A DNA stretch of 64,000 nucleotides from IMG/VR virus record IMGVR_UViG_3300045988_127883, positions 1 to 64,000 of that record. One strand, given 5' to 3'. The position numbers and the translations under genes were made by a program. Positions 12,530 to 36,089 of the stretch are shown here, piece by piece (positions within the stretch are counted from its first letter, which is position 1; every line of letters starts with the position of its first letter). The notes beneath the pieces were generated by a model. That model saw nothing but the letters and a program-made list of their open reading frames with translations, searched no databases and had not been told where the DNA came from. Source of the stretch: a virus.

Positions 12530-12772
12530 ATAATAGCCAAAAGCTATTCCGATTATTAGCCTAAGTGTTGAAACAAACACTACGTTATTTAAGAATAGAT
12601 AGTTACCTACGGATGTTTGCCCAAGTTCGTAGCTCTAAGGTAAGTGATTAAACAGTTCTGGTATTCAGGAACAGTGTTGCTTACAAAAAAAACCTTAAAT
12701 AACATTGGCGATGGGTACTAACAGAGTTTCACTCTGACTTATGTTGAATAAACATTAAAAACGTTTGTAGAT
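12530..12772 (+). ncRNA. Omega-RNA / HEARO-like structured element, copy 1, immediately upstream of IscB-1.
   Basis: A scaffold of about 200 nt (tattagcctaag...cattggcgatgggtactaacag...tgactt) is shared by four loci. Its stems covary between copies, for example gtgttgaaacaaacac vs gtgcttcgagcac vs gccttgaaacaaaggc. Placement next to IscB matches the known architecture. Confidence 0.7.
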
Positions 12773-13999
12773 ATGGTGTACGTACAAGACATAAATGGTA
12801 AACCTATGATGCCTACAACAAGGCATGGTAAGGTTAGGAGACTGCTTAAAGACAAAAAGGCAATCGTTGTAAACCTATGTCCGTTTACCATCAAATTAAT
12901 GTACGTAACATCTGATTACAAACAGAAAATTGTATTAGGCGTTGATGCTGGTACTAAACATGTTGGTCTATCGGCTACAACGAAAAGCAAAGAACTTTAC
13001 AGCAGTGAAGTTATTCTTAGAAATGATATCGTAGATCTTTTGTCTACCAGAAGGGAGCTACGAAGATCAAGACGAAATAGATTGAGATATAGAAAACCTC
13101 GTTTTGATAATAGAATAAAAAGTAAGCGTCCGGGATGGGTAGCACCTTCGGTGAAATACAAAGTAGACGCCCATATTCGTGTTATTGACAATGTATGTTC
13201 TATATTACCAATATCTCGTATTGTTATCGAAGTAGCTCAATTTGATACTCAAAAGATTAACAATCCTAATATATCAGGTAAAGAATATCAGGAGGGTGAT
13301 CAACTTGGATTTTGGAACGTTAGGGAATATGTTTTAGCAAGAGATGGACATAAATGCCAGCATTGTAAGGGAAAGTCAAAAGACCCAGTATTGAATGTTC
13401 ATCATATTGAATCACGAAAGACAGGTGGAGATTCCCCATCTAATCTTATTACCTTATGTGAAACTTGTCATAAAGAATACCATAAAGGTAATATAGATTT
13501 AAAGATCAGAAGAGGCAAGTCGCTTCGCGACGCAGCCGTAATGGGAATAATGAAATGGAGATTGTATGAAGAACTAAGGTCTAAATACAACAGAGTTTCT
13601 ATGACTTTCGGTTATGTTACAAAATACAATAGGATTAAACATGGTATTGAAAAATCTCATGTTTTCGATGCATTTGTTATTTCTAAAAACTTTGATGCTA
13701 TAAGGTTAGGATATTATTATAAAGTAAGATTAGTAAGAAGACATAATCGTCAGATCCATAAACAAAAGATTCCAAAAGGAGGGATAAAAAGACCAAATCA
13801 ATCTCCTTTTGAAGTTTTTGGTTTCCGATTGTTTGATAGGGTTATGTTTGAAAACAGTTATTATTTTATATTCGCAAGGCGTAAAACCGGTAGTTTTAAT
13901 ATTCGAGATATTGATGGTAAAAACCAAAGAGATATTACATACAAGAAATTGAAATTATCAAGGTGTAAACGCTTTATGGTACAAAAGGAAATGGATTGA
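12773..13999 (+). CDS. iscB: IscB, the OMEGA RNA-guided nuclease and Cas9 ancestor (408 aa, copy 1).
   Basis: PLMP-like KPMMPT motif. RuvC-I LGVDAGTKHVGLS, Arg-rich bridge RRELRRSRRNRLRYRKPRF and RuvC-II IVIEVAQFD. HNH with zinc CxxC pairs (CQHCKG...NVHHIES...SNLITLCETCHKEYH). RuvC-III SHVFDAFVIS. C-terminal TI-like domain. Confidence 0.85.
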   Translation: MVYVQDINGKPMMPTTRHGKVRRLLKDKKAIVVNLCPFTIKLMYVTSDYKQKIVLGVDAGTKHVGLSATTKSKELYSSEVILRNDIVDLLSTRRELRRSRRNRLRYRKPRFDNRIKSKRPGWVAPSVKYKVDAHIRVIDNVCSILPISRIVIEVAQFDTQKINNPNISGKEYQEGDQLGFWNVREYVLARDGHKCQHCKGKSKDPVLNVHHIESRKTGGDSPSNLITLCETCHKEYHKGNIDLKIRRGKSLRDAAVMGIMKWRLYEELRSKYNRVSMTFGYVTKYNRIKHGIEKSHVFDAFVISKNFDAIRLGYYYKVRLVRRHNRQIHKQKIPKGGIKRPNQSPFEVFGFRLFDRVMFENSYYFIFARRKTGSFNIRDIDGKNQRDITYKKLKLSRCKRFMVQKEMD

Positions 14000-18789: not shown

Positions 18790-19065
18790 ATGGGCAGATC
18801 AACAGAGTACTACAGGACTCATCCCGAAGCCAGGAAGAAAAAGGCTAAAAAGGACAAGGAGATAAATGCCAGACCGGAACAGAAAGCCAAACGCCGGGAG
18901 CTTGGTCGTAAAAACTACGAAACGGACAAGAAGAAGGGCAAGGGCTGGAGGAAAGGCAAGGATTGTTCTCATACCAAGAACGGTCTTAGGTATAAATCAG
19001 TAAAAGCTAATAGGGGATCCAAATCGGATACGAAAGGTGACAAAAATGCAAGATCTCCGAAATAA
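18790..19065 (+). CDS. Highly basic small protein (91 aa, Lys/Arg-rich). It may bind nucleic acid.
   Basis: Composition is visibly K/R dominated. Confidence 0.4.
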   Translation: MGRSTEYYRTHPEARKKKAKKDKEINARPEQKAKRRELGRKNYETDKKKGKGWRKGKDCSHTKNGLRYKSVKANRGSKSDTKGDKNARSPK

Positions 19066-19103
19066 TATACAAAAAGACAAATAGAATTTTACTTTTTTGT
19101 ATA

Positions 19104-19350
19104 TCCAGTTTTACTGGCCGGTTATTAGCCTAAGTGCTTCGAGCACTACGTTATCGGAGAATGTATAGTTACCCTGGAGTGTTTATCCAAGCTCCAGGCT
19201 CTAAGGCAGGTGATTAAACAGTATTTGTATTTGGATACAGTGTTGCTTGTAAGAAACCTCTGAATAACATTGGCGATGGGTACTAACAGATTGAAATATA
19301 TCTGACTTACTACGAATAGTAGTTATTAATTAAAAATTAGTTTGTAACAA
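19104..19350 (+). ncRNA. Omega-RNA / HEARO-like structured element, copy 2, upstream of IscB-2.
   Basis: Same conserved scaffold with compensatory stem changes. Ends at the IscB ATG. Confidence 0.7.
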
Positions 19351-20610
19351 ATGGTGTACGTACAAGACATAAATGGTAAACCTATGATGCCTACAACAAG
19401 GCATGGTAAGGTTAGGAGACTGCTTAAAGACAAAAAGGCAGTTGTTGTCAACTTATGTCCGTTTACCATCAAATTAATGTACGTTACATCTGATTACAAA
19501 CAGGAAATTGTGTTAGGCGTTGATGCTGGAACTAAACATGTTGGTCTATCAGCTACGACGAAAAGCAAGGAGCTTTACGCAAGTGAAGTTATTCTGAGAA
19601 ATGATATCATTAATTTGCTTTCGACAAGAAGAGAATTGAGGAAAGCGAGAAGGAATAGGATAAGGTATAGAAAGCCGAGATTTAATAACAGAATAAAGTC
19701 GAAGCGCCAAGGATGGATAGCTCCATCTGTTTGTCAAAAAATTGATTCCCATATTAAGGTTGTCAGTTTTATACATTCTATCCTTCCTGTTTCAAGATTA
19801 ATTATAGAAACTTCTCAGTTTGATACTCAAAAGATTAAGAATCCTGATATATTGGGAAAAGAATACCAGCAAGGCGAGCAACTTGGATTTTGGAATGTTC
19901 GAGAATACATACTTTTTCGTGATGGTCACAAATGCCAGCATTGTAAGGGAAAATCGAAAAATCCTATTCTTAATATCCACCATATCGAATCGCGAAAGAC
20001 TGGTGGAGATTCACCTTCTAATTTGATTACTTTATGTGAAACTTGCCATAAGGAGTACCATAAGGGGAATATTAAATTGAAGGTAAAAAGAGGAACTTCA
20101 CTTCGTGATGCGGCCGCGATGGGAATCATGAAATGGAAGTTATTCGATAAATTGAAGTCATTATATCCAAACGTTAGTATGACATTTGGATATATAACGA
20201 AACATAATCGGATAAAACATAGAATCGAAAAGTCCCATGTTTCTGATGCATTTGTTATCTCAGAGAATTTTAAAGCAAAAAGGCTTGGATATCATTTCAA
20301 GATGAAACTCACACGGAGACATAATAGGCAAATTCATAAAATGAAGATGCAAAAGGGAGGGATCAAAAGAATGAATCAATCACCATTTAGGGTATTTGGG
20401 TTTAGACTATTTGATAAAGTAATGTTTTATGGTGAAAAACGATTTATTTACGCAAGAAGACTTTCTGGTAGTTTTAAAATAAAAGATATAGATGGGGAAA
20501 ATGAGAAAAATATATCATATAAAAAATTAAAATATATAGGACATGGATTGACTTCTATTGAAGTAGATCAATCATATGGATATAAAGCAAATACACATAA
20601 TAACGAATAA
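19351..20610 (+). CDS. iscB: IscB (419 aa, copy 2). It is the most diverged copy and has a C-terminal extension.
   Basis: All motifs as in copy 1 are retained (RuvC-II IIETSQFD, HNH NIHHIES/CETCHKEYH, RuvC-III SHVSDAFVIS). The first ~90 nt are identical to the other copies. Confidence 0.85.
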   Translation: MVYVQDINGKPMMPTTRHGKVRRLLKDKKAVVVNLCPFTIKLMYVTSDYKQEIVLGVDAGTKHVGLSATTKSKELYASEVILRNDIINLLSTRRELRKARRNRIRYRKPRFNNRIKSKRQGWIAPSVCQKIDSHIKVVSFIHSILPVSRLIIETSQFDTQKIKNPDILGKEYQQGEQLGFWNVREYILFRDGHKCQHCKGKSKNPILNIHHIESRKTGGDSPSNLITLCETCHKEYHKGNIKLKVKRGTSLRDAAAMGIMKWKLFDKLKSLYPNVSMTFGYITKHNRIKHRIEKSHVSDAFVISENFKAKRLGYHFKMKLTRRHNRQIHKMKMQKGGIKRMNQSPFRVFGFRLFDKVMFYGEKRFIYARRLSGSFKIKDIDGENEKNISYKKLKYIGHGLTSIEVDQSYGYKANTHNNE

Positions 20611-20615
20611 TCACA

Positions 20616-21746
20616 ATGGAGTTTGGAACATTCGATAACAAAACGACAAAAGTTAACATCCGGAATATTTTCAAAACCTCCAAACAGGTTATGGAAGAGG
20701 CGTATGAGAATATCTTGAAATACAGGCGGGGAGAGCTTATCCCCGCTAAAACCGGATACGATTATATTGATGAGGCTTTGCTTGGAGGTATTTTCCCTCA
20801 GCATGCTATTGCCATAGGAGCCCGGCCATCTGTAGGTAAATCGTATGTGGCCCAAAAGATATTGGAAAATGTGATGAATCCGATGATCAACCCGCAAGCA
20901 GAAGATTATTTTCTTGTTAATTGCGAGTTCGAAATGAATCCTCAAGATCTTCTTCTTCGCAGAATGAGCCAGGATATGAAAAAGCGGGCTCCTGAAATAT
21001 TAAGAAGGCAAGATTCTAATACAGTAGAAGAGATGAGGATGTTTGAAATCCTTCAAGGTGAAATCAGAAATAATATAATATACATCGATGCTCCGTGTAC
21101 GGTAAAAGAGTTTGAGGCGGCTGTGTATCATATAGCTACCAAACATAAAGACAAACGTCTTATAATATTTAAAGTCGATCATATTGCTTTGATAAAAAGA
21201 ATGGGATTAGATCCTAAGTCGGCTATAGATGATTTGGTGGCGGTTATGAACGAAGCTAAATTAGTATATAAAAACATATTTTTCCTCATCATATCCCAAT
21301 TCAACAGAGAAATAGAAGGAAGGATAAAAAGCCCACAAGAGCAGCCTCCGCGTCTTTCTGATTTTTACCAGTCTGATACGCTGGGTCAGTTATGTACGTT
21401 AATGATAGGTTTGCACAATCCTCGTAGGTACGGGCTGGATAAGTATATGATATTTGGGAAAGATTGGTATCAGACTCTTGATAGGTTTAAAACTGAAAAC
21501 AAAACATCATTCAGGACAGCCGGACTTGTGTTTCATCATATACTGAAGGTAAGGCAAGTTAGTATGGAAGAGCTTACTAATACAATCCACCCAGAGATAC
21601 TGCCGGGACATGGATGGATGTACGGGGAGGGCGGGACGAAGTTCGTGAACCCCAACCAGCCGCCGACGCCGCCTAAGCTCTATACTGTGGAAGACGTTAC
21701 GGACAATCAGGAACAAGAGACAAAAAAAGAACAGTCATTGTATTAA
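20616..21746 (+). CDS. DnaB-like replicative helicase, RecA-fold C-terminal domain (376 aa).
   Basis: Walker A GARPSVGKS. DnaB-like SQFNRE (SQLNR) motif. Walker B-like IIFKVDHIAL. Confidence 0.65.
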   Translation: MEFGTFDNKTTKVNIRNIFKTSKQVMEEAYENILKYRRGELIPAKTGYDYIDEALLGGIFPQHAIAIGARPSVGKSYVAQKILENVMNPMINPQAEDYFLVNCEFEMNPQDLLLRRMSQDMKKRAPEILRRQDSNTVEEMRMFEILQGEIRNNIIYIDAPCTVKEFEAAVYHIATKHKDKRLIIFKVDHIALIKRMGLDPKSAIDDLVAVMNEAKLVYKNIFFLIISQFNREIEGRIKSPQEQPPRLSDFYQSDTLGQLCTLMIGLHNPRRYGLDKYMIFGKDWYQTLDRFKTENKTSFRTAGLVFHHILKVRQVSMEELTNTIHPEILPGHGWMYGEGGTKFVNPNQPPTPPKLYTVEDVTDNQEQETKKEQSLY

Positions 21747-22579: not shown

Positions 22580-23293
22580 ATGTACATCAATTTCAGACAA
22601 CTTGCAGCATCAGACATGACCCCTAATGATCTTGCCAATCTTCTTGCCATAAGACAGAAGGATTCGGTTATGATCGAAGCTATGCCAGAAGAAGACGCTG
22701 GTAGATATATAGAGCTTGGCCTGGTTGAGAAATTAAAATCAGGCGTGATGAGATTGACCAACAAAGGAACGTCTTTTGTGAATTATATAGAGACACCGGA
22801 GATGACAGACGAGGTTCTGGAAACGTTGAAGATTATGATAGGAATGTACGAATCATATTCAAAAGACATAGGTGTCAGCAGAAAAGAAGCGGAATCCAGA
22901 TTGTGTTGGTTTATGGGTAACACCTCATTCAAGAAAGAGGTCATACTTCAGGTAACGGAATCTTATATAGCAGAGTCAGGAGATTATACAATGAGCTTAT
23001 GTAACTTCATATGGAAACCGCCTTCTCAGGCTTTTTCAGTCCATATGAACCTTAAAAATTCAAAGCTCTTTGACTTAATAGCTGAAAAATTTAAGATCGC
23101 TACCGAGCCTTATTTGGAGTCTAAGAAGAATAAGGAAATGGATTGGTTGTTTGCCGTATCTAAATTGCCTACGCCGCCGGCTAAAGGCAATCCGGATTAT
23201 TTGTTTACCGGAAGCTCGGAGACAGATAAAGAGCGATTGAAAAACATAAAAACGTATTTATTTAACAAAATTAGAAAGCAATGGAAAAAGTAA
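22580..23293 (+). CDS. Hypothetical protein (237 aa).
   Basis: Intact ORF. Confidence 0.45.
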   Translation: MYINFRQLAASDMTPNDLANLLAIRQKDSVMIEAMPEEDAGRYIELGLVEKLKSGVMRLTNKGTSFVNYIETPEMTDEVLETLKIMIGMYESYSKDIGVSRKEAESRLCWFMGNTSFKKEVILQVTESYIAESGDYTMSLCNFIWKPPSQAFSVHMNLKNSKLFDLIAEKFKIATEPYLESKKNKEMDWLFAVSKLPTPPAKGNPDYLFTGSSETDKERLKNIKTYLFNKIRKQWKK

Positions 23294-23532
23294 GAATCAG
23301 AAAGATAATAGAGGATATAATTATTACTCAGTTTCTTAATTCGGAAATAGATATAGTTCATGAAGAAGATGTGTCGTTTAAAGAACTTGGATTAGATTCT
23401 GTTGATCGGATTGAGCTTGATGTGATGGTGGAACAAAAATTCAATATTGTTATTATTGATTATGATATGGAGACCATCAAAGATATGACTGATCTTGTTT
23501 ACAAAATAATAACAGAAGGATATGGGAAGTGA
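23281..23532 (+). CDS. Acyl-carrier-protein-like protein (83 aa).
   Basis: ELGLDSVDRIELDVMVEQKFNIVI matches the ACP phosphopantetheine-attachment region (DLGxDSLDxVELvM..EeeF). Confidence 0.5.
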   Translation: MEKVRIRKIIEDIIITQFLNSEIDIVHEEDVSFKELGLDSVDRIELDVMVEQKFNIVIIDYDMETIKDMTDLVYKIITEGYGK

Positions 23533-24016
23533 CATAATTTTATGCATGGCTTTAATAGCGTCATTTGCTTTTGTTATACAGTTTTTGTTGTCGATATTAG
23601 GATCTGATCTGGATACGGATATTGACATTGACAGTGCTTCTGATTTAAGTATGTCTTTGTCGGACATCATATCATTCAAGGGCATAACACATTTCATCCT
23701 TGGATATAGCTGGACTACCTACTTTTCGGGTTCTCATTTAGTAGGGGTTGTGATAGGGTCGTTTTTCTTTATCGTTTTGTTTTACGTATATAAGTTACTT
23801 CTTAAGTTAAAACAAGAAATGGTGTACGAATGTCCAGAAGATTTAAATGGCAGAGAAGTGGAGATAGTATTTAGATCAGGAAAGAACCATTATATGGTAA
23901 ATATTGTGAAAAACGGGAGACAGGAACAGATGAGAGTAGGGTGCTTGTCTGGGAAAAATTACAAAAATGGTGACAAGGTGAACATAAAATACGAAGAAGG
24001 AGAATTAAGTATCTAA
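23522..24016 (+). CDS. NfeD-like membrane protein, the usual partner of SPFH/flotillin proteins (164 aa).
   Basis: N-terminal TM helices plus a C-terminal soluble Gly/Val-rich domain. It sits immediately upstream of the SPFH gene, as in yuaF-yuaG (floT) type pairs. Confidence 0.5.
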   Translation: MGSDIILCMALIASFAFVIQFLLSILGSDLDTDIDIDSASDLSMSLSDIISFKGITHFILGYSWTTYFSGSHLVGVVIGSFFFIVLFYVYKLLLKLKQEMVYECPEDLNGREVEIVFRSGKNHYMVNIVKNGRQEQMRVGCLSGKNYKNGDKVNIKYEEGELSI

Positions 24017-24049
24017 TTTTTTTATACCAACAATTAAATTTTAAAAGTT

Positions 24050-25750
24050 ATGACAACAATCATGTACGTGTCAGCTATCTTAGCTGTAGTGATTATTTTG
24101 ACAATCATCGGAGTCTTATCAAGGTATCGTAGATGCAAGCCTAATCAGGTTTTGGTCGTTTACGGTAAGACAGGTGGGGAAAAGAAATCGGCGAAATTAT
24201 ATCATGGTGGAGCAGCATTCGTGTTGCCTATTATCCAAAGCTATGATATTTTATCTATGGAGCCTATGCAAATAGATTGTAGGCTTACTGGTGCTTTGTC
24301 ATCTCAGAATATTAGAGTAGATGTGCCTACAACTATTACAGTAGCTATCAGTACAAATCCTGAAATCATGCAAAATGCAGCAGAAAGACTTTTGGGGATG
24401 GATACCGAATCTACTGAAAATCTTATTACAGACATCGTTTACGGTCAGATGCGTTTGATTATTGCCGAAATGACAATCGAAAAACTTAATTCTGATAGGG
24501 ATGAGTTTTTGGATAAGGCAAGAAAAAACATTGATAACGAACTTAATAAATTGGGTCTTTATCTTTTGAACATTAACATCAGTGACATCAGAGATGAAGC
24601 CGGCTACATCATGAATCTTGGTAAAGAGGCTGAAAGCAAGGCTCTGAACGAAGCACAGGCTAATATCGAAGAACAGGAAAAGCTGGGTGCTATTAAGATT
24701 GCTGTACAACAGAAGGAAAAAGAAACGGCTGTAGCTAATACCCAAAAAGAGCAAGAGATTCAAATTGCCTATACTGAAAAAGAAAAAGAAACGGTAGTAG
24801 CTGAAACAAAGAAAGAAAAAGAAGTAGCTTTGGCTTTAACCGATAAAGAAAAACAGATCGGTGTAGCTCAAGCCGATAGAGATAGGGCTGCGGCTATAGC
24901 AAAGACTTTGGCTGACAAGGAATCAGCGATTGCAAGATCTAAGGCGGAACTTGAAGTAAACAAAGCTGAAGCCGAAAGAATGGAAGAAGTTGGAAAGAAT
25001 AAAGCTGAAGCTGACAAACAAGCAGCTATAGCAATACAAGACTCTGAAGCTCAGATTAAGAAAGCTGAGGCTGAGAAAAATGCTTCTGTAGGCTACAACA
25101 ATGCCCAGAAAGAGGTTGCTGTATCAGAATCAGAATTGCAGGTTATCAAAGCTCAATCAGAAAAGAAGGCCGGAGAAGAAAAAGTTAAATCGGAAGCGGC
25201 TGTAAAAACGGCAAAAGAGCTTGCTGATAAAGAAGTGGAAGAAGCTAAGGCTAAGAAAGTTCAGGCTGCGCTTAAGGCTGAAAAGATTGTGCCGGCTGAA
25301 ACCCAGAAGGAAGAGGCTATCTTACAAGCTGATGCCGAGGCCGAGAAGATCAAACGCCGGGCTGAGGCTGAGGCAGCAGCACATTTGGCAAAAGCTGAGG
25401 CAGAGGCAAAAGCTATTCAGATGAAGCTGGAGGCAGAAGCCGACGGTAAGAAAAAGTCGTTAATGGCAGAAGCCGACGGATTTAAGGCTATGGTGGAAGC
25501 AGCAGAATCCAATCCCCAGATCGCCATCCAGTACAAGATGGTTAATCAGTGGAAAGAAATTGCTGGAGAACAGGTTAAAGCATTTGAGCACATTAACCTC
25601 GGAAATATCACGGTATTTGACGGCGGTCAGAACAGTACCGGTAATTTCCTTAACAATGTTGTCAAGACCGTCGCTCCGGCATTGGGAGTCATCGATCAGC
25701 TTCCGATTGCAGATACTTTAAAGAAATTAAAAGGAGATGACAAAAAATAA
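24050..25750 (+). CDS. Flotillin-like SPFH / band-7 protein with a long Ala/Glu/Lys-rich coiled coil (566 aa).
   Basis: N-terminal TM and SPFH core (NQVLVVYGKTGG...PIIQSYDILSMEPMQIDC...RVDVPTTITVAIS). Followed by flotillin-type EA-rich repeats (AEAEKIKRRAEAEAAAHLAKAEAEAKA). Confidence 0.7.
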   Translation: MTTIMYVSAILAVVIILTIIGVLSRYRRCKPNQVLVVYGKTGGEKKSAKLYHGGAAFVLPIIQSYDILSMEPMQIDCRLTGALSSQNIRVDVPTTITVAISTNPEIMQNAAERLLGMDTESTENLITDIVYGQMRLIIAEMTIEKLNSDRDEFLDKARKNIDNELNKLGLYLLNINISDIRDEAGYIMNLGKEAESKALNEAQANIEEQEKLGAIKIAVQQKEKETAVANTQKEQEIQIAYTEKEKETVVAETKKEKEVALALTDKEKQIGVAQADRDRAAAIAKTLADKESAIARSKAELEVNKAEAERMEEVGKNKAEADKQAAIAIQDSEAQIKKAEAEKNASVGYNNAQKEVAVSESELQVIKAQSEKKAGEEKVKSEAAVKTAKELADKEVEEAKAKKVQAALKAEKIVPAETQKEEAILQADAEAEKIKRRAEAEAAAHLAKAEAEAKAIQMKLEAEADGKKKSLMAEADGFKAMVEAAESNPQIAIQYKMVNQWKEIAGEQVKAFEHINLGNITVFDGGQNSTGNFLNNVVKTVAPALGVIDQLPIADTLKKLKGDDKK

Positions 25751-25944
25751 ATACAATGGCCCAAGGTTACACTTGGGCCTAATTGAAGAAGCAAAAGCAG
25801 CATTTATAGATTTCATGCCAGCAGGAATAGTGATTTTTAGTGCTTTACTAATTACGATATTTTTAACATGGATTTTGGACAAGATTTAGAACCAGAAGAA
25901 CTGACCAAGCATTATGATCAGTGTTATAACCCCAAATAGTATTA

Positions 25945-26240
25945 AACCAATATAATTCTATTATAAAAGTTTAATACATCTCTTTAAGAGATCGGGTTAT
26001 TAGCCTAAGCCTTGAAACAAAGGCTACGTTATTTAAGAATAGATAGTTACCTACGGATGTTTGCCCAAGTCTGTAGCTCTAAGGTAAGTGATTAAACAGT
26101 TCTGGTATTCAGGAACAGTGTTGCTTATTCAAAACCTTAAATAACATTGGCGATGGGTACTTACAGGAGAAATCCTGACTTATCCCTAACGGGATTTACA
26201 TCTACCAAGGAGACCGGAAGGTCTCCGAGGGGATGTATTA
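25945..26240 (+). ncRNA. Orphan omega-RNA / HEARO-like element (copy 3) with no downstream IscB ORF. It ends in a strong hairpin (ggagaccggaaggtctcc).
   Basis: Full conserved scaffold present and closest to copy 1. The next ORF (26284) is unrelated. The 5' flank (25945-25976) is homologous to the copy-4 5' flank. Confidence 0.6.
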
Positions 26241-26283
26241 AAACATATGAATAGCTTTAAATATATTTAATAGAATATGAGAT

Positions 26284-26631: not shown

Positions 26632-27656
26632 TGGTCCCGGAAACACATTTGCTATATAAGGAGTTTAATGGTGTAAAACGTCTTGCCATATCTTATTCCC
26701 AGATAGATACGTTTCTTACCTGTCCAATGAAATGGTATAAGACTTACGTAGAGGGCAAAAGGTCTACAGAAAAACAAGAAGCTACGTCTTATGGTACGGT
26801 TATCCATAAGACACTGGAATACTTTTTTAAGAACGGAAGACAGCCTTCTGGTAAAGACCTTGGAGAAGCAATAAGTTACTATGCTTACCAGGAAGACATA
26901 CCTTGGCAATCACCGGAAAATATGATGATAGCCATGAAACAATCTGGAGAACTTCTTGCTTGGATTGTGGATCTATTTAAAAAAGACGGGAATAGGTTTA
27001 TGATAGCTGATAGTGATCTTAATCCCTGTGAGAAACTTATTAGACACGGCGCTATAGTTGGAGTCGAAGAAGATTTTGTGCTGCCGTACCGTCTTCCTAA
27101 GCCTGTTGATATAAATGGGACCGTTCATACTCATGTGTACATAGTAGGATCGGTGGATCTTCATCTGGCTATAAAGAGCAAGAACGTAGTTCACCATTAT
27201 GTCATAGATTGGAAATCAGGTAATAAGGTTTTTGATTCCAAGAAGTTGGAAACGAATTTACAGCATCCTATATATTCGTTTTACATCTATAGAAAATATG
27301 GTGGGGTTCTGCCAGATATGAACATCTATTTCTTTACCAGGACCAGGCAGTACCAAAAGGTTAAAGTAGATGAAGAACGTAAAACAAAATCTATAGAGAT
27401 GCTAAACGATACATTATCCAAAATGTATGATTTTGAAGATAATAGTGTAAAATCATTTCAAGCGTACATCCAGGGAGCAGAAGGAGCCAGGTATAGCAAG
27501 CGGCGTGCCACCCTAAGCCAGCCTGTTTCGCAAAACAAGCTACCCTGCCCGTCAGCACTGTGTTATTATTGTGACTTTGGATTACATAACAAAAACGAAT
27601 GCCCTTTCTCTTCGGATTGGGATCCGTCTAAAAAGATAAAACGATATCTGAAATAA
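26628..27656 (+). CDS. Cas4-like / RecB-family PD-(D/E)xK nuclease with a Cys cluster (342 aa).
   Basis: N-terminal SYSQIDTFLTCPMKWY. Core VGSVDLHLAIKS...IDWKSG (D...D/E-x-K). C-terminal CPSALCYYC...ECPF. One N-terminal plus three C-terminal Cys is the Cas4-type FeS arrangement. Confidence 0.6.
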   Translation: MMVPETHLLYKEFNGVKRLAISYSQIDTFLTCPMKWYKTYVEGKRSTEKQEATSYGTVIHKTLEYFFKNGRQPSGKDLGEAISYYAYQEDIPWQSPENMMIAMKQSGELLAWIVDLFKKDGNRFMIADSDLNPCEKLIRHGAIVGVEEDFVLPYRLPKPVDINGTVHTHVYIVGSVDLHLAIKSKNVVHHYVIDWKSGNKVFDSKKLETNLQHPIYSFYIYRKYGGVLPDMNIYFFTRTRQYQKVKVDEERKTKSIEMLNDTLSKMYDFEDNSVKSFQAYIQGAEGARYSKRRATLSQPVSQNKLPCPSALCYYCDFGLHNKNECPFSSDWDPSKKIKRYLK

Positions 27657-27932
27657 CATTAAAACAATATAATTCCATTATAAGGTTTTAATGTACCAGA
27701 AATGGTCCGGATATTAGCCTAAGCCTTGAAACATAGGCTACGTTATTTGAGAATATATAGTTACCTACGGATGTTTACCCAAGTCTGTAGCTCTAAGGAT
27801 GGTGATTAAACAACAGTTGTATTTGGATTGTAGTGTTGCTTACTAAAAACCTTAAATAACATTGGCGATGGGTACTAACAGGATGGAATATTCCTGACTT
27901 ATGTTGAATAAACATTAAAAACGTTTGTAGAT
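27657..27932 (+). ncRNA. Omega-RNA / HEARO-like structured element, copy 4, upstream of IscB-3.
   Basis: Same scaffold. It starts directly after the upstream gene's stop codon. The 3' 40 nt plus the start of IscB are identical to copy 1. Confidence 0.7.
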
Positions 27933-29153
27933 ATGGTGTACGTACAAGACATAAATGGTAAACCTATGATGCCTACAACAAGGCATGGTAAGGTTAGGAG
28001 ACTGCTTAAAGACAAAAAGGCAATCGTTGTAAACCTATGTCCGTTTACCATCAAATTAATGTACGTAACATCTGATTACAAACAGAAAATTGTATTAGGC
28101 GTTGATGCTGGTACTAAGCATGTTGGTCTATCAGCTACGACGAAAAGCAAAGAACTTTACGCAAGCGAAGTGACTTTAAGAAATGATATTGTAGATCTTT
28201 TGTCTACCAGAAGAGAGCTACGAAGATCGAGACGAAATAGATTGAGGTATAGAAAACCTCGTTTCAATAATAGAATAAAAAGCAAGCGTCCAGGATGGAT
28301 AGCACCTTCGGTGCAGTACAAAGTAGACGCTCATATTCGTGTTATTGATAATGTTTTTTCTATACTGCCTGTATCCCGTATTGTTATTGAAGTAGCTCAA
28401 TTCGATATACAAAAGATTAAGAATCCTGAGATATTCGGTAAAGAGTATCAGGAGGGTGATCAACTTGGTTTTTGGAACATCAGAGAGTATGTCTTAACAA
28501 GGGATGGACACAAATGCCAGTATTGTAAAGGAAAGTCAAAAGACCCAGTATTGAATGTTCATCATCTTGAGTCTCGAAAAACCGGAGGGGATTCCCCATC
28601 TAATCTTATTACCTTATGTGAAACTTGTCATAAAGAATACCATAAAGGTAATATAGATTTAAAGATCAGAAGAGGCAAGTCGCTTCGCGACGCAGCCGTA
28701 ATGGGGATTATGAAATGGAGGTTGTATGAAGAGTTAAAATCCAGATACGACAGAGTTTCTATGACGTTTGGTTACATCACGAAACATAATCGGATTAAAT
28801 ACGGGATTGAAAAATCCCATACATCCGACGCGTTTGTCATTTCTAAGAACATTAATGCGAAACGAATCGAACGTCAATATTTAAAACGTTTAATTCGTAG
28901 ACATAATAGACAAATACATAAAATGAAAATTTTAAAAGGAGGGAAGAAGAAAAACAATCAAGCTCCTTTTGAGGTTTTCGGATTTAGATTGTTTGATAAA
29001 GTGTTGTATGATAATAAAATATGTTTTGTTTATGGAAGGAGAAAATCAGGGAATTTCAATATCAGGGATTTCAACGGAGAAAACCCGAAGGATGTTTCAC
29101 GCAAAAAGTTTAAACTCATTAGAGGGAAGAGGCATCCGATTATATTAAAGTAA
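27933..29153 (+). CDS. iscB: IscB (406 aa, copy 3).
   Basis: Same motif set (RuvC-II IVIEVAQFD, HNH NVHHLES/CETCHKEYH, RuvC-III SHTSDAFVIS). About 185 nt at the 5' end are identical to copy 1, then it diverges. Confidence 0.85.
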   Translation: MVYVQDINGKPMMPTTRHGKVRRLLKDKKAIVVNLCPFTIKLMYVTSDYKQKIVLGVDAGTKHVGLSATTKSKELYASEVTLRNDIVDLLSTRRELRRSRRNRLRYRKPRFNNRIKSKRPGWIAPSVQYKVDAHIRVIDNVFSILPVSRIVIEVAQFDIQKIKNPEIFGKEYQEGDQLGFWNIREYVLTRDGHKCQYCKGKSKDPVLNVHHLESRKTGGDSPSNLITLCETCHKEYHKGNIDLKIRRGKSLRDAAVMGIMKWRLYEELKSRYDRVSMTFGYITKHNRIKYGIEKSHTSDAFVISKNINAKRIERQYLKRLIRRHNRQIHKMKILKGGKKKNNQAPFEVFGFRLFDKVLYDNKICFVYGRRKSGNFNIRDFNGENPKDVSRKKFKLIRGKRHPIILK

Positions 29154-29190
29154 ATGAATAGATTTAATAAATTTAATAGAAAAACGCATT

Positions 29191-35600: not shown

Positions 35601-36089
35601 ATGGAAAAGAATTTAAAACTCATATGTCCAAAATGTGGCACCCCTCACCAGCCTCATTCTCCGCACACGATGGATGCAGATGGATTTGAAAGGAGTGAGA
35701 TAAGAACTGTCATGGAAGACAGGGGATGGTGCTACGAATGCTCTTTTTGGCAAAACTTGTACGACAAGCACAAAGACGATCCTGGATGGGTTAGGATAGA
35801 CGGTGTAAGCTGGGTGCTTAAGCCTATGGTGGAAAACGTACCGAGCGGATGGAACAGCCTTGGATGTGGTGGAAGAAAAATGTATATCAATATCGAAGGG
35901 AAAGGCATTGTTACATCAAATAACTGCTGGTGTCAAGGTGATGTTTCGGACGCATTCAAGGATCTTATGCCTGATAATGCTACTTGGGCTACGAAGGAGG
36001 AATTTGACAAAGCTCCTGTAGTAGGACATATCATAGAAGGTATTGGTTTAGTTTTCACAGATAGGGGAGGTCATGAAGTTAATGCTTAG
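35601..36089 (+). CDS. Hypothetical Cys/His-rich protein (162 aa). It is the last plus-strand gene before the strand switch.
   Basis: Intact ORF. Confidence 0.45.
   Translation: MEKNLKLICPKCGTPHQPHSPHTMDADGFERSEIRTVMEDRGWCYECSFWQNLYDKHKDDPGWVRIDGVSWVLKPMVENVPSGWNSLGCGGRKMYINIEGKGIVTSNNCWCQGDVSDAFKDLMPDNATWATKEEFDKAPVVGHIIEGIGLVFTDRGGHEVNA

Follow-up and report, generated by a model that had tools for sequence, protein, structure and literature searches.

A Bacteroidales-type NfeD-like/flotillin gene pair carried by an epsilon crAss-like phage

An NfeD-like gene and a flotillin gene stand next to each other in the genome of an epsilon crAss-like phage. The two genes were probably captured as a unit from a Bacteroidales bacterium by an epsilon crAss-like phage ancestor, and the pair seems to have been kept as a functional but dispensable accessory. 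Both genes could be identified, they are of host origin and under purifying selection, and the flotillin gene is present in some close relatives and missing from others. The pair is a phage-borne NfeD-like/flotillin operon, and no new kind of system emerges from it. The human gut is rich in epsilon crAss-like phages, and a host-derived flotillin operon under purifying selection provides a clean case of a membrane-organisation gene serving as a viral accessory. In public data, the number of contigs with the exact phage proteins ranged from hundreds to over a thousand, and the GenBank record of phage crAssE-Sib already carried labels for these genes. The flotillin pair was not mentioned in the crAssE-Sib paper (PMC11054128), and no discussion of it was found in the literature on crAss-like phages and flotillin.

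Gene layout and identity of the encoded proteins

The window was a stretch of 64,000 nucleotides, and the region of interest shared 94.9% nucleotide identity with phage crAssE-Sib (OR575929.1). This assigned the window to an epsilon crAss-like phage and bore out the phage location given in the initial annotation. The three open reading frames described there were all found on the + strand at the same coordinates: an acyl-carrier-protein (ACP)-like protein of 83 aa (23281–23532), an NfeD-like membrane protein of 164 aa (ORF2, 23522–24016), and a flotillin of 566 aa (24050–25750). All three had been called translationally coupled. This may stand for the first two, which overlapped by 11 nt, but not for ORF2 and flotillin, which were separated by an AT-rich spacer of 33 nt (24017–24049, +). 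Overlaps were usual on this strand, where 20 of 56 neighbouring gene pairs showed one, and an unrelated 237-aa gene upstream also overlapped the start of the ACP-like gene. This 237-aa gene was considered as a phosphopantetheinyl transferase or acyltransferase, and family and PDB searches gave no match; the AF2 model of its product, built from the single sequence, was too poor for use (pLDDT 35). Sites found in a sigma-70 promoter and terminator scan, whose coverage left Bacteroidetes and phage promoters outside, were no commoner than in shuffled sequence.

A small ORF of 50 aa (25737–25889, +) overlapped the flotillin stop by 14 nt and is an uncertain fourth gene. It encoded a C-terminal hydrophobic helix, with a TM-like segment at residues 19–50, and a 52-aa ORF with a like layout occupied its position in a second phage genus. 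In about one close relative in three, the ORF ended at 34 aa, and no host counterpart was found at the Bacteroidales flotillin loci.

The SPFH core proposed for the 566-aa protein was upheld. Pfam Band_7 (PF01145) matched residues 30–211 (nt 24137–24682, +) at 2.5e-25, with 90 bits against a GA of 23.6, and this clearly contradicted the alternative of a 566-aa protein without an SPFH fold. The Flot domain (PF15975) covered residues 450–559 at the C-terminus (nt 25397–25726, +; 1.5e-9, 38.4 bits against a GA of 27). Residues 216–449 were composed of 22.6% Ala, 17.5% Glu, and 16.7% Lys (57% together), which agreed with the EA-rich coiled coil that had been claimed. The sole hydrophobic segment (Kyte-Doolittle) was found at residues 1–28 (MTTIMYVSAILAVVIILTIIGVLSRYRR), the predicted N-terminal membrane anchor. 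The best solved relatives were the SPFH domains of human flotillin-2 (1.2e-23) and flotillin-1 (3e-18). The FloT equivalog of NCBIfam (NF058507) reached 147.4 bits against a cut-off of 700. Judged from its sequence, the phage protein is a flotillin-family member and not a FloT ortholog. A defence-system reading of the SPFH gene was also considered, and the PADLOC defence models matched none of the proteins.

The NfeD assignment of ORF2 was sustained indirectly, by a fold model, profile scores, and adjacency to flotillin, but not by the curated profiles. Pfam, NCBIfam, PHROG, and PADLOC gave no usable match. The models PF01957, PF07290, and PF21001 returned nothing even at E-values up to 10, nor when the C-terminal 69 residues were searched alone. 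The Bacteroides homologs of ORF2 likewise had no match to the Pfam NfeD/YqiJ models, and only one of 80 family members reached PF01957 (6e-5). The AF2 model comprised three TM helices followed by a C-terminal beta-barrel. The order along the protein was TM1, an acidic DxDxDxD loop, an SFKG..HF motif with TM2–TM3, and the OB-type barrel, which is the layout of short NfeD proteins (N-terminal TM helices, then a C-terminal OB-fold beta-barrel). When a profile of 80 homologs was compared with 177,635 PDB sequences, YuaF ranked first, but only at an E-value of 0.1. With hhalign, the family scored 25.3 against YuaF and 22.8 against YbbJ, both above all 62 decoys (mean 12.8, sd 3.0, maximum 19.6). 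An alignment with YqiJ of Escherichia coli, seemingly in register, was discounted; its score of 19.2 was no better than the decoys. ORF2 and its homologs adjoined an SPFH-family gene in the phage, in 79 of the 80 Bacteroidales loci, and in two distant pairs (L083 and L087). A word-indexed homolog search recovered the phage clade only, an exhaustive search of representatives yielded 418 relatives, and a viral scan with the close ORF2 alignment returned near-identical relatives only. These results add a Bacteroidales-wide NfeD-like family that is missed by the present Pfam NfeD and YqiJ models.

The 83-aa protein is indeed ACP-like. Pfam PP-binding (PF00550) scored 26.5 bits against a GA of 20.8, PHROG 5934 ('acyl carrier protein') matched at 2.1e-8, and 57 PDB ACP sequences matched at E ≤ 0.01. 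The conserved serine was located as Ser40 of LGLDSVD, which aligned with the phosphopantetheine (DSL) serine of solved ACPs such as 3gzl. Of 66 relatives, 65 retained it, as did the second phage genus; an S40Y variant also occurred. The NCBIfam ACP equivalogs, including AcpP of fatty-acid synthesis, reached about 29 bits at best against cut-offs of 66–106 and gave no support to orthology. Neither a phosphopantetheinyl transferase nor an acyl-ACP enzyme was annotated anywhere in the reference genome. The matches listed in the homolog search all came from the same phage clade, and the only matches from tblastn against annotated phages were weak ones, to Yersinia jumbo phages. A TAA nonsense codon or a frameshift interrupted the gene in 4 of 80 relatives. 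Recoding of the in-frame stops was rejected because they were TAA and no tRNA genes were found in the window.

Host source, selection, and loss

Over its full length, the phage flotillin shared 62–67% identity with flotillins encoded on the chromosomes of Bacteroides, Parabacteroides, Phocaeicola, and Prevotella. Eighty host loci were retrieved, 79 of them complete, and an ORF2 homolog of 164–165 aa was located immediately upstream of the flotillin gene in all 79. The spacer from stop to start was mostly 30–41 nt in the hosts, compared with the 33 nt of the phage. A divergently transcribed truA-like gene preceded the pair in B. xylanisolvens. Within 4 kb of the pair, an ACP match was absent from all 80 loci. 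Since the pair was found in every complete host locus and the ACP in none, the phage took a two-gene operon. The phage flotillins formed one clade in an NJ tree, sister to the sampled hosts, with 68–69% identity between phage and host against 82–94% among hosts. The NfeD-like proteins of phage and Bacteroidales shared 29–40% identity, and this divergence was proportional to the faster rate of ORF2 in the hosts.

Both genes of the pair were strongly constrained. Among the 64–76 relatives compared, pN/pS was 0.013 for the SPFH part and 0.033 for the C-terminus of flotillin, and 0.06 for ORF2. Between the two phage genera, dN was 0.116 for flotillin and 0.150 for DnaB, synonymous sites were saturated, and the pair was retained in both. 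Positions 24021–25859 were missing from 13 of 80 IMG/VR relatives, and two more had other breakpoints; in these 15 (~19%), flotillin was deleted and the ACP kept. Public assemblies contained many further deletion and fusion variants, and variants with and without flotillin occurred in similar sequence backgrounds. Because it is lost in ~19% of the close relatives, flotillin is an accessory and not a core replication or assembly function, and such frequent loss could also mean that the gene is costly and not beneficial. These losses and the many other deletion variants would fit a host operon that was picked up by chance and is decaying without a role in the phage. However, such passenger DNA is scarcely conceivable here: in most genomes the two genes are unbroken and strong purifying selection acts on them, they persisted in two genera whose synonymous sites are saturated, and the dN of flotillin between the genera is as low as that of the replicative helicase.

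The same comparisons bear on the ACP-like gene, which had been presented as a partner of the other two. In a three-gene module, it would serve the NfeD-like protein and flotillin as a dedicated partner, for instance as the donor of an acyl group or as an adaptor docked at the scaffold. The 11-nt overlap with ORF2, the order PP-binding/ORF2/flotillin conserved in the second phage genus, the Ser40 motif kept in nearly all copies and across genera, and two natural in-frame ACP::ORF2 fusions (L020 and P0045) are consistent with such a module. However, the ACP was beside the pair in none of the 80 host loci, it outlasted the deletion of flotillin, and its pN/pS of 0.36, against 0.01–0.06 for the pair, indicated much weaker constraint. 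The partner claim was not supported. Some relatives encoded a broken or S40Y ACP, other phage flotillins had no ACP neighbour, and no transferase or acyl-ACP enzyme was among the annotated genes. Overlaps were common on this strand, including that of the unrelated 237-aa gene, and the fusions were single contigs amid many deletion variants at a deletion hot spot. The three genes did not occur together wherever the pair did, as the trio was seen only within the epsilon crAss-like clade, and they did not share an evolutionary fate in either co-loss or constraint. The module is thus improbable. Most likely, the ACP-like gene is an independent phage accessory gene, the phage-side neighbour of the captured pair and not its partner.

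Possible role in infection

Flotillin genes are linked with NfeD-like genes, including yqiJ-yqiK (PMC10434171), and SPFH proteins assemble into rings and domes on membranes (PMC12624060). The bacterial flotillins FloA and FloT belong to the envelope-stress proteins and influence membrane fluidity (PMC8144471). The captured pair appears to close a tightly packed string of replication genes, formed by the DnaB-like helicase gene and the genes after it, and would therefore probably be produced together with the replication proteins. The phage flotillin would insert in the inner membrane of the host via its N-terminal anchor and oligomerise through its SPFH, coiled-coil, and Flot regions, building ring or dome scaffolds on the cytoplasmic face as other SPFH proteins do. 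The NfeD-like protein may share this membrane patch, with its cytoplasmic OB domain contacting the scaffold. An extra or phage-controlled scaffold might help the infected cell to maintain a fluid, intact, and energised membrane under infection stress until lysis, which would parallel the part played by FloA/FloT in envelope stress in Bacillus. As natural variants lose the flotillin gene, any benefit would depend on conditions.

Remodelling of membrane domains at a replication or assembly site, or interference with defence, had been put forward at first as the purpose; this is narrowed by the accessory status of flotillin and by the lack of any PADLOC match. The pair could instead act on the membrane domains of the host. 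The phage flotillin would then co-assemble with the host flotillin or displace it in a dominant-negative manner and so rewire these domains; this would block superinfection, disarm membrane-acting abortive-infection effectors, or retarget the membrane machinery of the host. The high similarity to the host flotillin over the full length (about 68%), including the C-terminal oligomerisation region, makes mixed phage/host oligomers plausible. The separation of the phage clade from the hosts, and the still greater divergence of its NfeD-like partner, would fit a changed specificity, and presence/absence polymorphism is typical of arms-race genes. However, strong purifying selection without signs of diversifying selection is atypical of such genes, the divergence of ORF2 is in proportion to its rate in the hosts, and no PADLOC model was matched. 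We therefore regard this hijacking as rather unlikely.

As HflK/C do with FtsH, which in turn controls lambda CII, and as in NfeD/stomatin protease pairs, the two proteins might modulate a membrane protease of the host and, through it, the phage regulators and the choice between lysis and lysogeny. SPFH complexes regulate FtsH (PMC10434171), repressor and anti-repressor genes were reported in the crAssE-Sib phage group (PMC11054128), and one source labels a Bacteroides homolog of ORF2 as a 'membrane protein implicated in regulation of membrane protease activity'. However, the phage protein is of the flotillin/YqiK type with a Flot domain and not of the HflK/C type, ORF2 is a short-form NfeD that lacks a protease domain, and the cassette lies in the replication module, away from the repressor genes. 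Such a regulator is highly improbable.

Also very unlikely is that the captured flotillin cage has turned into a virus-specific membrane platform, to which the diverged NfeD-like protein recruits the ACP-like protein, as the ACP::NfeD fusions hint. At the inner membrane, the platform would provide a site for docking or for acyl or lipid modification. It would support genome replication or assembly, or shield against membrane-targeting abortive-infection effectors. If true, a virus would here for the first time be using an SPFH microdomain system that has a carrier-protein subunit dedicated to it. The natural variants with and without flotillin offer a ready comparison for the role of flotillin in Bacteroidales and in infection.

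Comparison with known systems

Phage ACPs, such as those of PHROG 5934 and g153 of Yersinia jumbo phage fHe-Yen9-04, are small PP-binding proteins that share the DS(L/V)D serine motif with the protein described here, and PHROG 5934 is classed as 'moron / auxiliary metabolic gene'. Among annotated phage ACPs, the nearest was only about 41% identical, over 49 residues, and the present ACP has no cognate enzyme annotated in its reference genome.

Band_7 proteins, some with a Flot domain, are known in the T4-like phages 44RR, Aeh1, and RB43, in Vibrio phage KIT04, and in the human faecal scaffold MT835492 (PMC1524935). They shared only 26–34% identity with the present flotillin over the SPFH domain. 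They lacked an adjacent ORF2-family partner or ACP (KIT04 has an 82-aa membrane protein upstream), and, unlike the present flotillin, they had no evident recent host source.

The eukaryotic flotillin-1/2 cages (PDB 9bq2 and 9l3g) have a homologous SPFH domain and a like domain order, QmcA (8z5g) matched the SPFH domain of the phage protein at 7e-4, and HflK/C is a further SPFH assembly. Because the domain order is that of flotillin/SPFH cages, a like ring or dome assembly is predicted for the phage flotillin (PMC12624060). Its coiled-coil length differs from that of the cages, and phage variants differ in it too (about 408 to 566 aa).

In yqiJ-yqiK of E. coli and yuaF-floT of B. subtilis, an NfeD-like membrane protein with an OB domain is also encoded beside a flotillin, and these flotillins share the anchor, SPFH, coiled coil, and Flot domain with the phage protein. 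YqiK aligned with it over the full length (24% identity, E-value 1e-20). YqiJ itself matches the Pfam YqiJ_N, YqiJ_OB, and NfeD models, whereas the phage ORF2 does not.

The Bacteroidales operon, as in B. xylanisolvens XB1A, B. thetaiotaomicron, and P. vulgatus, is like the phage pair in gene order and in protein sizes (164–165 aa and about 550 aa). Unlike the host operon, the phage pair lies in a replication module with an ACP-like gene ahead of it, is polymorphic in its presence, and forms a diverged clade of its own.

Genomic setting of the cassette

The region shared 94.9% nucleotide identity with crAssE-Sib (OR575929.1), an epsilon crAss-like phage of the human gut. All three ORFs of the cassette were present as the initial annotation had placed them. 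An ACP-like gene (23281-23532, 83 aa), the NfeD-like gene ORF2 (23522-24016, 164 aa) and a flotillin gene (24050-25750, 566 aa) were located on the plus strand at the end of a close-packed string of replication genes. This string started at a DnaB-like helicase (20616-21746), and 200-aa, 65-aa and 237-aa genes with no assigned role lay between the helicase and the three ORFs. On the 3′ side, the cassette was followed by a PD-(D/E)XK exonuclease and an RRXRR+HNH nuclease. The cassette is already named in GenBank, without prior analysis: OR575929.1 lists "acyl carrier protein," "transmembrane protein," and "flotillin family protein," the description of crAssE-Sib (PMC11054128) does not mention the three genes, and a literature search on crAss-like phages and flotillin found no paper linking the two. 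GC skew and AT skew switched sign at about position 36000 of the window, which matched the change from plus-strand replication genes to minus-strand genes; the latter, beyond ~36 kb, correspond to the structural genes of crAssE-Sib.

The stop of the 237-aa gene (22580-23293, plus strand) overlapped the ACP start by 13 nt. This gene was highly conserved, with a pN/pS of 0.025 and 76% identity in a second genus of epsilon crAss-like phages. It had no match in Pfam, PHROG, NCBIfam or PDB, and its single-sequence AF2 model reached a pLDDT of only 35. Overlap was generic in this phage genome, involving 20 of 56 adjacent gene pairs, the 237-aa and ACP genes included. The cassette had been described as translationally coupled; the ACP gene and ORF2 did overlap, but ORF2 and the flotillin gene did not. 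A small plus-strand ORF of 50 aa (25737-25889), encoding a C-terminal hydrophobic helix, overlapped the flotillin stop by 14 nt. A 52-aa ORF of like layout occupied the same position in the second genus. About a third of the close relatives had a truncated, 34-aa version of the 50-aa ORF that lacked the helix, and the hosts had no counterpart of it.

The plus strand carried four HEARO RNAs (IscB-type omega RNA, Rfam RF02033), at 12530-12722, 19062-19287, 25926-26164 and 27669-27879; they scored 94-113 bits, above the gathering score of 83. The third was solo and directly followed the cassette. In the other three, an ORF of 406-419 aa started about 50-65 nt downstream (12773-13999, 19351-20610 and 27933-29153). 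The one of these that was tested carried RRXRR and HNH domains and looks IscB-like. Because 25928-26282 and about 27646-29190 were missing from many close relatives, the HEARO segments resemble mobile elements that inserted at scattered points of the replication module.

Identity of the three products

The 566-aa protein is securely assigned as a flotillin on its profile matches. Residues 30-211 matched Pfam Band_7 (2.5e-25) and residues 450-559 matched Pfam Flot (1.5e-9), which agreed with the SPFH core proposed in the initial annotation and excluded a generic coiled-coil protein without an SPFH fold. The closest solved structures were human flotillin-2 and flotillin-1 cage subunits (1e-23), and E. 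coli YqiK aligned end to end with 24% identity. Residues 1-28 were predicted to form a hydrophobic anchor, and Ala, Glu and Lys made up 57% of residues 216-449. Against the NCBI model for FloT the phage protein scored 147 bits, below the cut-off of 700, and it is not a FloT ortholog in the NCBI sense. Among flotillin variants P0144-P0169 (alignment A4), the Ala/Glu-rich coiled coil varied in length through in-frame indels. The resulting proteins ranged from about 408 to 566 aa, and some were encoded on contigs as long as 151 kb. Such variation, if real, would alter the geometry of any cage.

The NfeD assignment is the least secure part of the original observation. ORF2 had no match in Pfam, NCBIfam, PHROG or PADLOC. 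An exhaustive profile search yielded 418 relatives at E ≤ 1e-3, which shared a plan in which TM1 and an acidic DxDxDxD loop precede an SFKG..HF motif with TM2-TM3, followed by an "LVGR...NG...GD.V.I..Y..G.YYI" domain. The AF2 model (pLDDT 73) contained three long helices and a C-terminal beta-barrel. When a profile of 80 relatives was compared with PDB, YuaF topped the list at an E of only 0.1. The hhalign scores of the YuaF C-domain (25.3) and of E. coli YbbJ (22.8), both aligned across the whole C-domain, exceeded those of every one of the 62 decoys (mean 12.8, sd 3.0, maximum 19.6), and YqiJ (19.2) fell within the decoy range. Pfam NfeD was reached by one of the 80 relatives, and one public source assigned the COG name of NfeD to a Bacteroides homolog. 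Because fold, remote profile scores and gene order were taken together, the ORF2 product was filed as NfeD-like, a remote, structure-level call; its family is divergent and lies outside the curated NfeD and YqiJ models.

The ACP-like 83-mer matched PHROG 5934 and Pfam PP-binding (26.5 bits; threshold 20.8), as had been expected, and Ser40 in its LGLDSVD motif aligned with the phosphopantetheine serine of solved ACPs. It was far from every AcpP model of fatty-acid synthesis. Two contigs of 311,720 and 309,273 bp, ~2x the genome length of about 151 kb, carried the exact ACP sequence; they may reflect a concatemer or a duplication in assembly, or else a relative that is integrated or larger.

Host counterpart of the pair

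Scanning one genome per bacterial species gave 324 loci with flotillin relatives. The best 80 of these were all from Bacteroidales (Bacteroides, Parabacteroides, Phocaeicola, Prevotella, and relatives), whose flotillins shared 62-67% identity with the phage protein over the full length. An ORF2 homolog of 164-177 aa, 29-40% identical to the phage ORF2, was directly upstream of the flotillin in 79 of 79 complete loci among them, and none of the 80 had an ACP match. The spacer was 30-41 nt in most host loci vs. 33 nt for the phage pair. Immediately upstream of the pair, B. xylanisolvens had a truA-like gene that was divergently transcribed.

Flotillin identity was 82-94% between hosts across families, 68-69% between phage and host copies, and 83% between the two phage genera, and in the NJ tree the phage flotillins formed one clade, sister to the sampled hosts. 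In the corresponding ORF2 comparison, phage and host homologs were only 34-42% identical. This was proportionate, because ORF2 evolved faster in the hosts too (host-host identity 44-83%). The simplest reading of these comparisons is that the two-gene operon of a host was captured once, before the phage lineage divided into the two genera. Distant pairs of NfeD-like and Band_7 genes were also present in three metagenome contigs (L083, L084, and L087), with 36-37% (ORF2) and 38-50% (flotillin) identity to the phage. L083 branched outside the Bacteroidales-plus-phage group in the NJ tree; upstream it had no ACP, and a 197-aa gene lay on the opposite strand.

Constraint, loss and possible role

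Across 64-77 close relatives, pN/pS was 0.013 for the SPFH domain, 0.033 for the flotillin C-terminus, 0.06 for ORF2, and 0.36 for the ACP. Between the two genera, where synonymous sites were saturated, dN was 0.116 for flotillin, 0.150 for DnaB, 0.27 for ORF2, and 0.60 for the ACP. That the pair is decaying passenger DNA is contradicted by both measures and is hardly credible.

The 23.3-25.9 kb stretch (23281-25889) is a deletion hot spot. Positions 24021-25859, containing the entire flotillin gene, were absent from 13 of 80 IMG/VR relatives, with the junction at a TTTTTAA microhomology, and two further relatives of the 80 had lost the flotillin through other breakpoints. In public assemblies, at least nine distinct fusions joined ORF2 in frame to the flotillin C-terminus, three others joined them out of frame, and one joined the ACP to the ORF2 C-terminus (fusion and deletion proteins P0007, P0009, P0011, P0013, P0014, P0020, P0027, P0028, P0030, P0034, P0045, P0046, and P0047). 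The surplus of in-frame junctions may be real or an ascertainment effect. Strong constraint combined with frequent flotillin deletion argues that the pair is functional where present, yet accessory.

The ACP had been proposed as a partner of the two membrane proteins. The order PP-binding, ORF2, flotillin was kept in the second genus, so that adjacency is conserved within the phage clade, and two single-contig fusions also favor a three-gene module. However, the ACP was missing from the source operon, it was kept with ORF2 in all flotillin-deleted relatives, its constraint was far weaker, and the gene overlaps are generic. Neither Vibrio phage KIT04 nor faecal phage scaffold MT835492 had an ACP next to its flotillin, and no phosphopantetheinyl transferase or acyl-ACP enzyme was annotated in crAssE-Sib. 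Three relatives had TAA nonsense codons in the ACP itself and one had a frameshift; one copy carried S40Y at the attachment serine and, in another relative, a 37-nt deletion joined ACP residues 1-70, in frame, with the NfeD-like protein (loci L042, L072 [codon 22], L071 [codon 52], L062, and L020, plus one further copy). The partnership is thus improbable; what survives of the earlier interpretation is a phage-borne NfeD-like/flotillin pair.

On membranes, SPFH proteins assemble into rings and domes (PMC12624060), an NfeD-like gene is the typical partner of a flotillin gene (PMC10434171), and Bacillus FloA and FloT are envelope-stress proteins maintaining membrane fluidity and protection (PMC8144471). 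From these precedents, we infer that the pair would most likely be expressed together with the phage replication genes. The phage flotillin would insert into the inner membrane and build oligomers on its cytoplasmic face, where the NfeD-like protein would join the scaffold via its OB domain. The extra scaffold would keep the membrane of the infected cell functional until lysis, or re-organise it. Its benefit would be conditional, because the flotillin is frequently lost. A rather unlikely alternative is that the phage flotillin co-assembles with its host counterpart and hijacks it, serving superinfection exclusion or anti-defence, and control of a protease or of lysogeny by the pair is very doubtful.

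Carriage and loss of the pair provide a natural with/without system for studying flotillin function in Bacteroidales. The pair is an NfeD-like/flotillin operon of host origin carried by a crAss-like phage, and not a new type of system.
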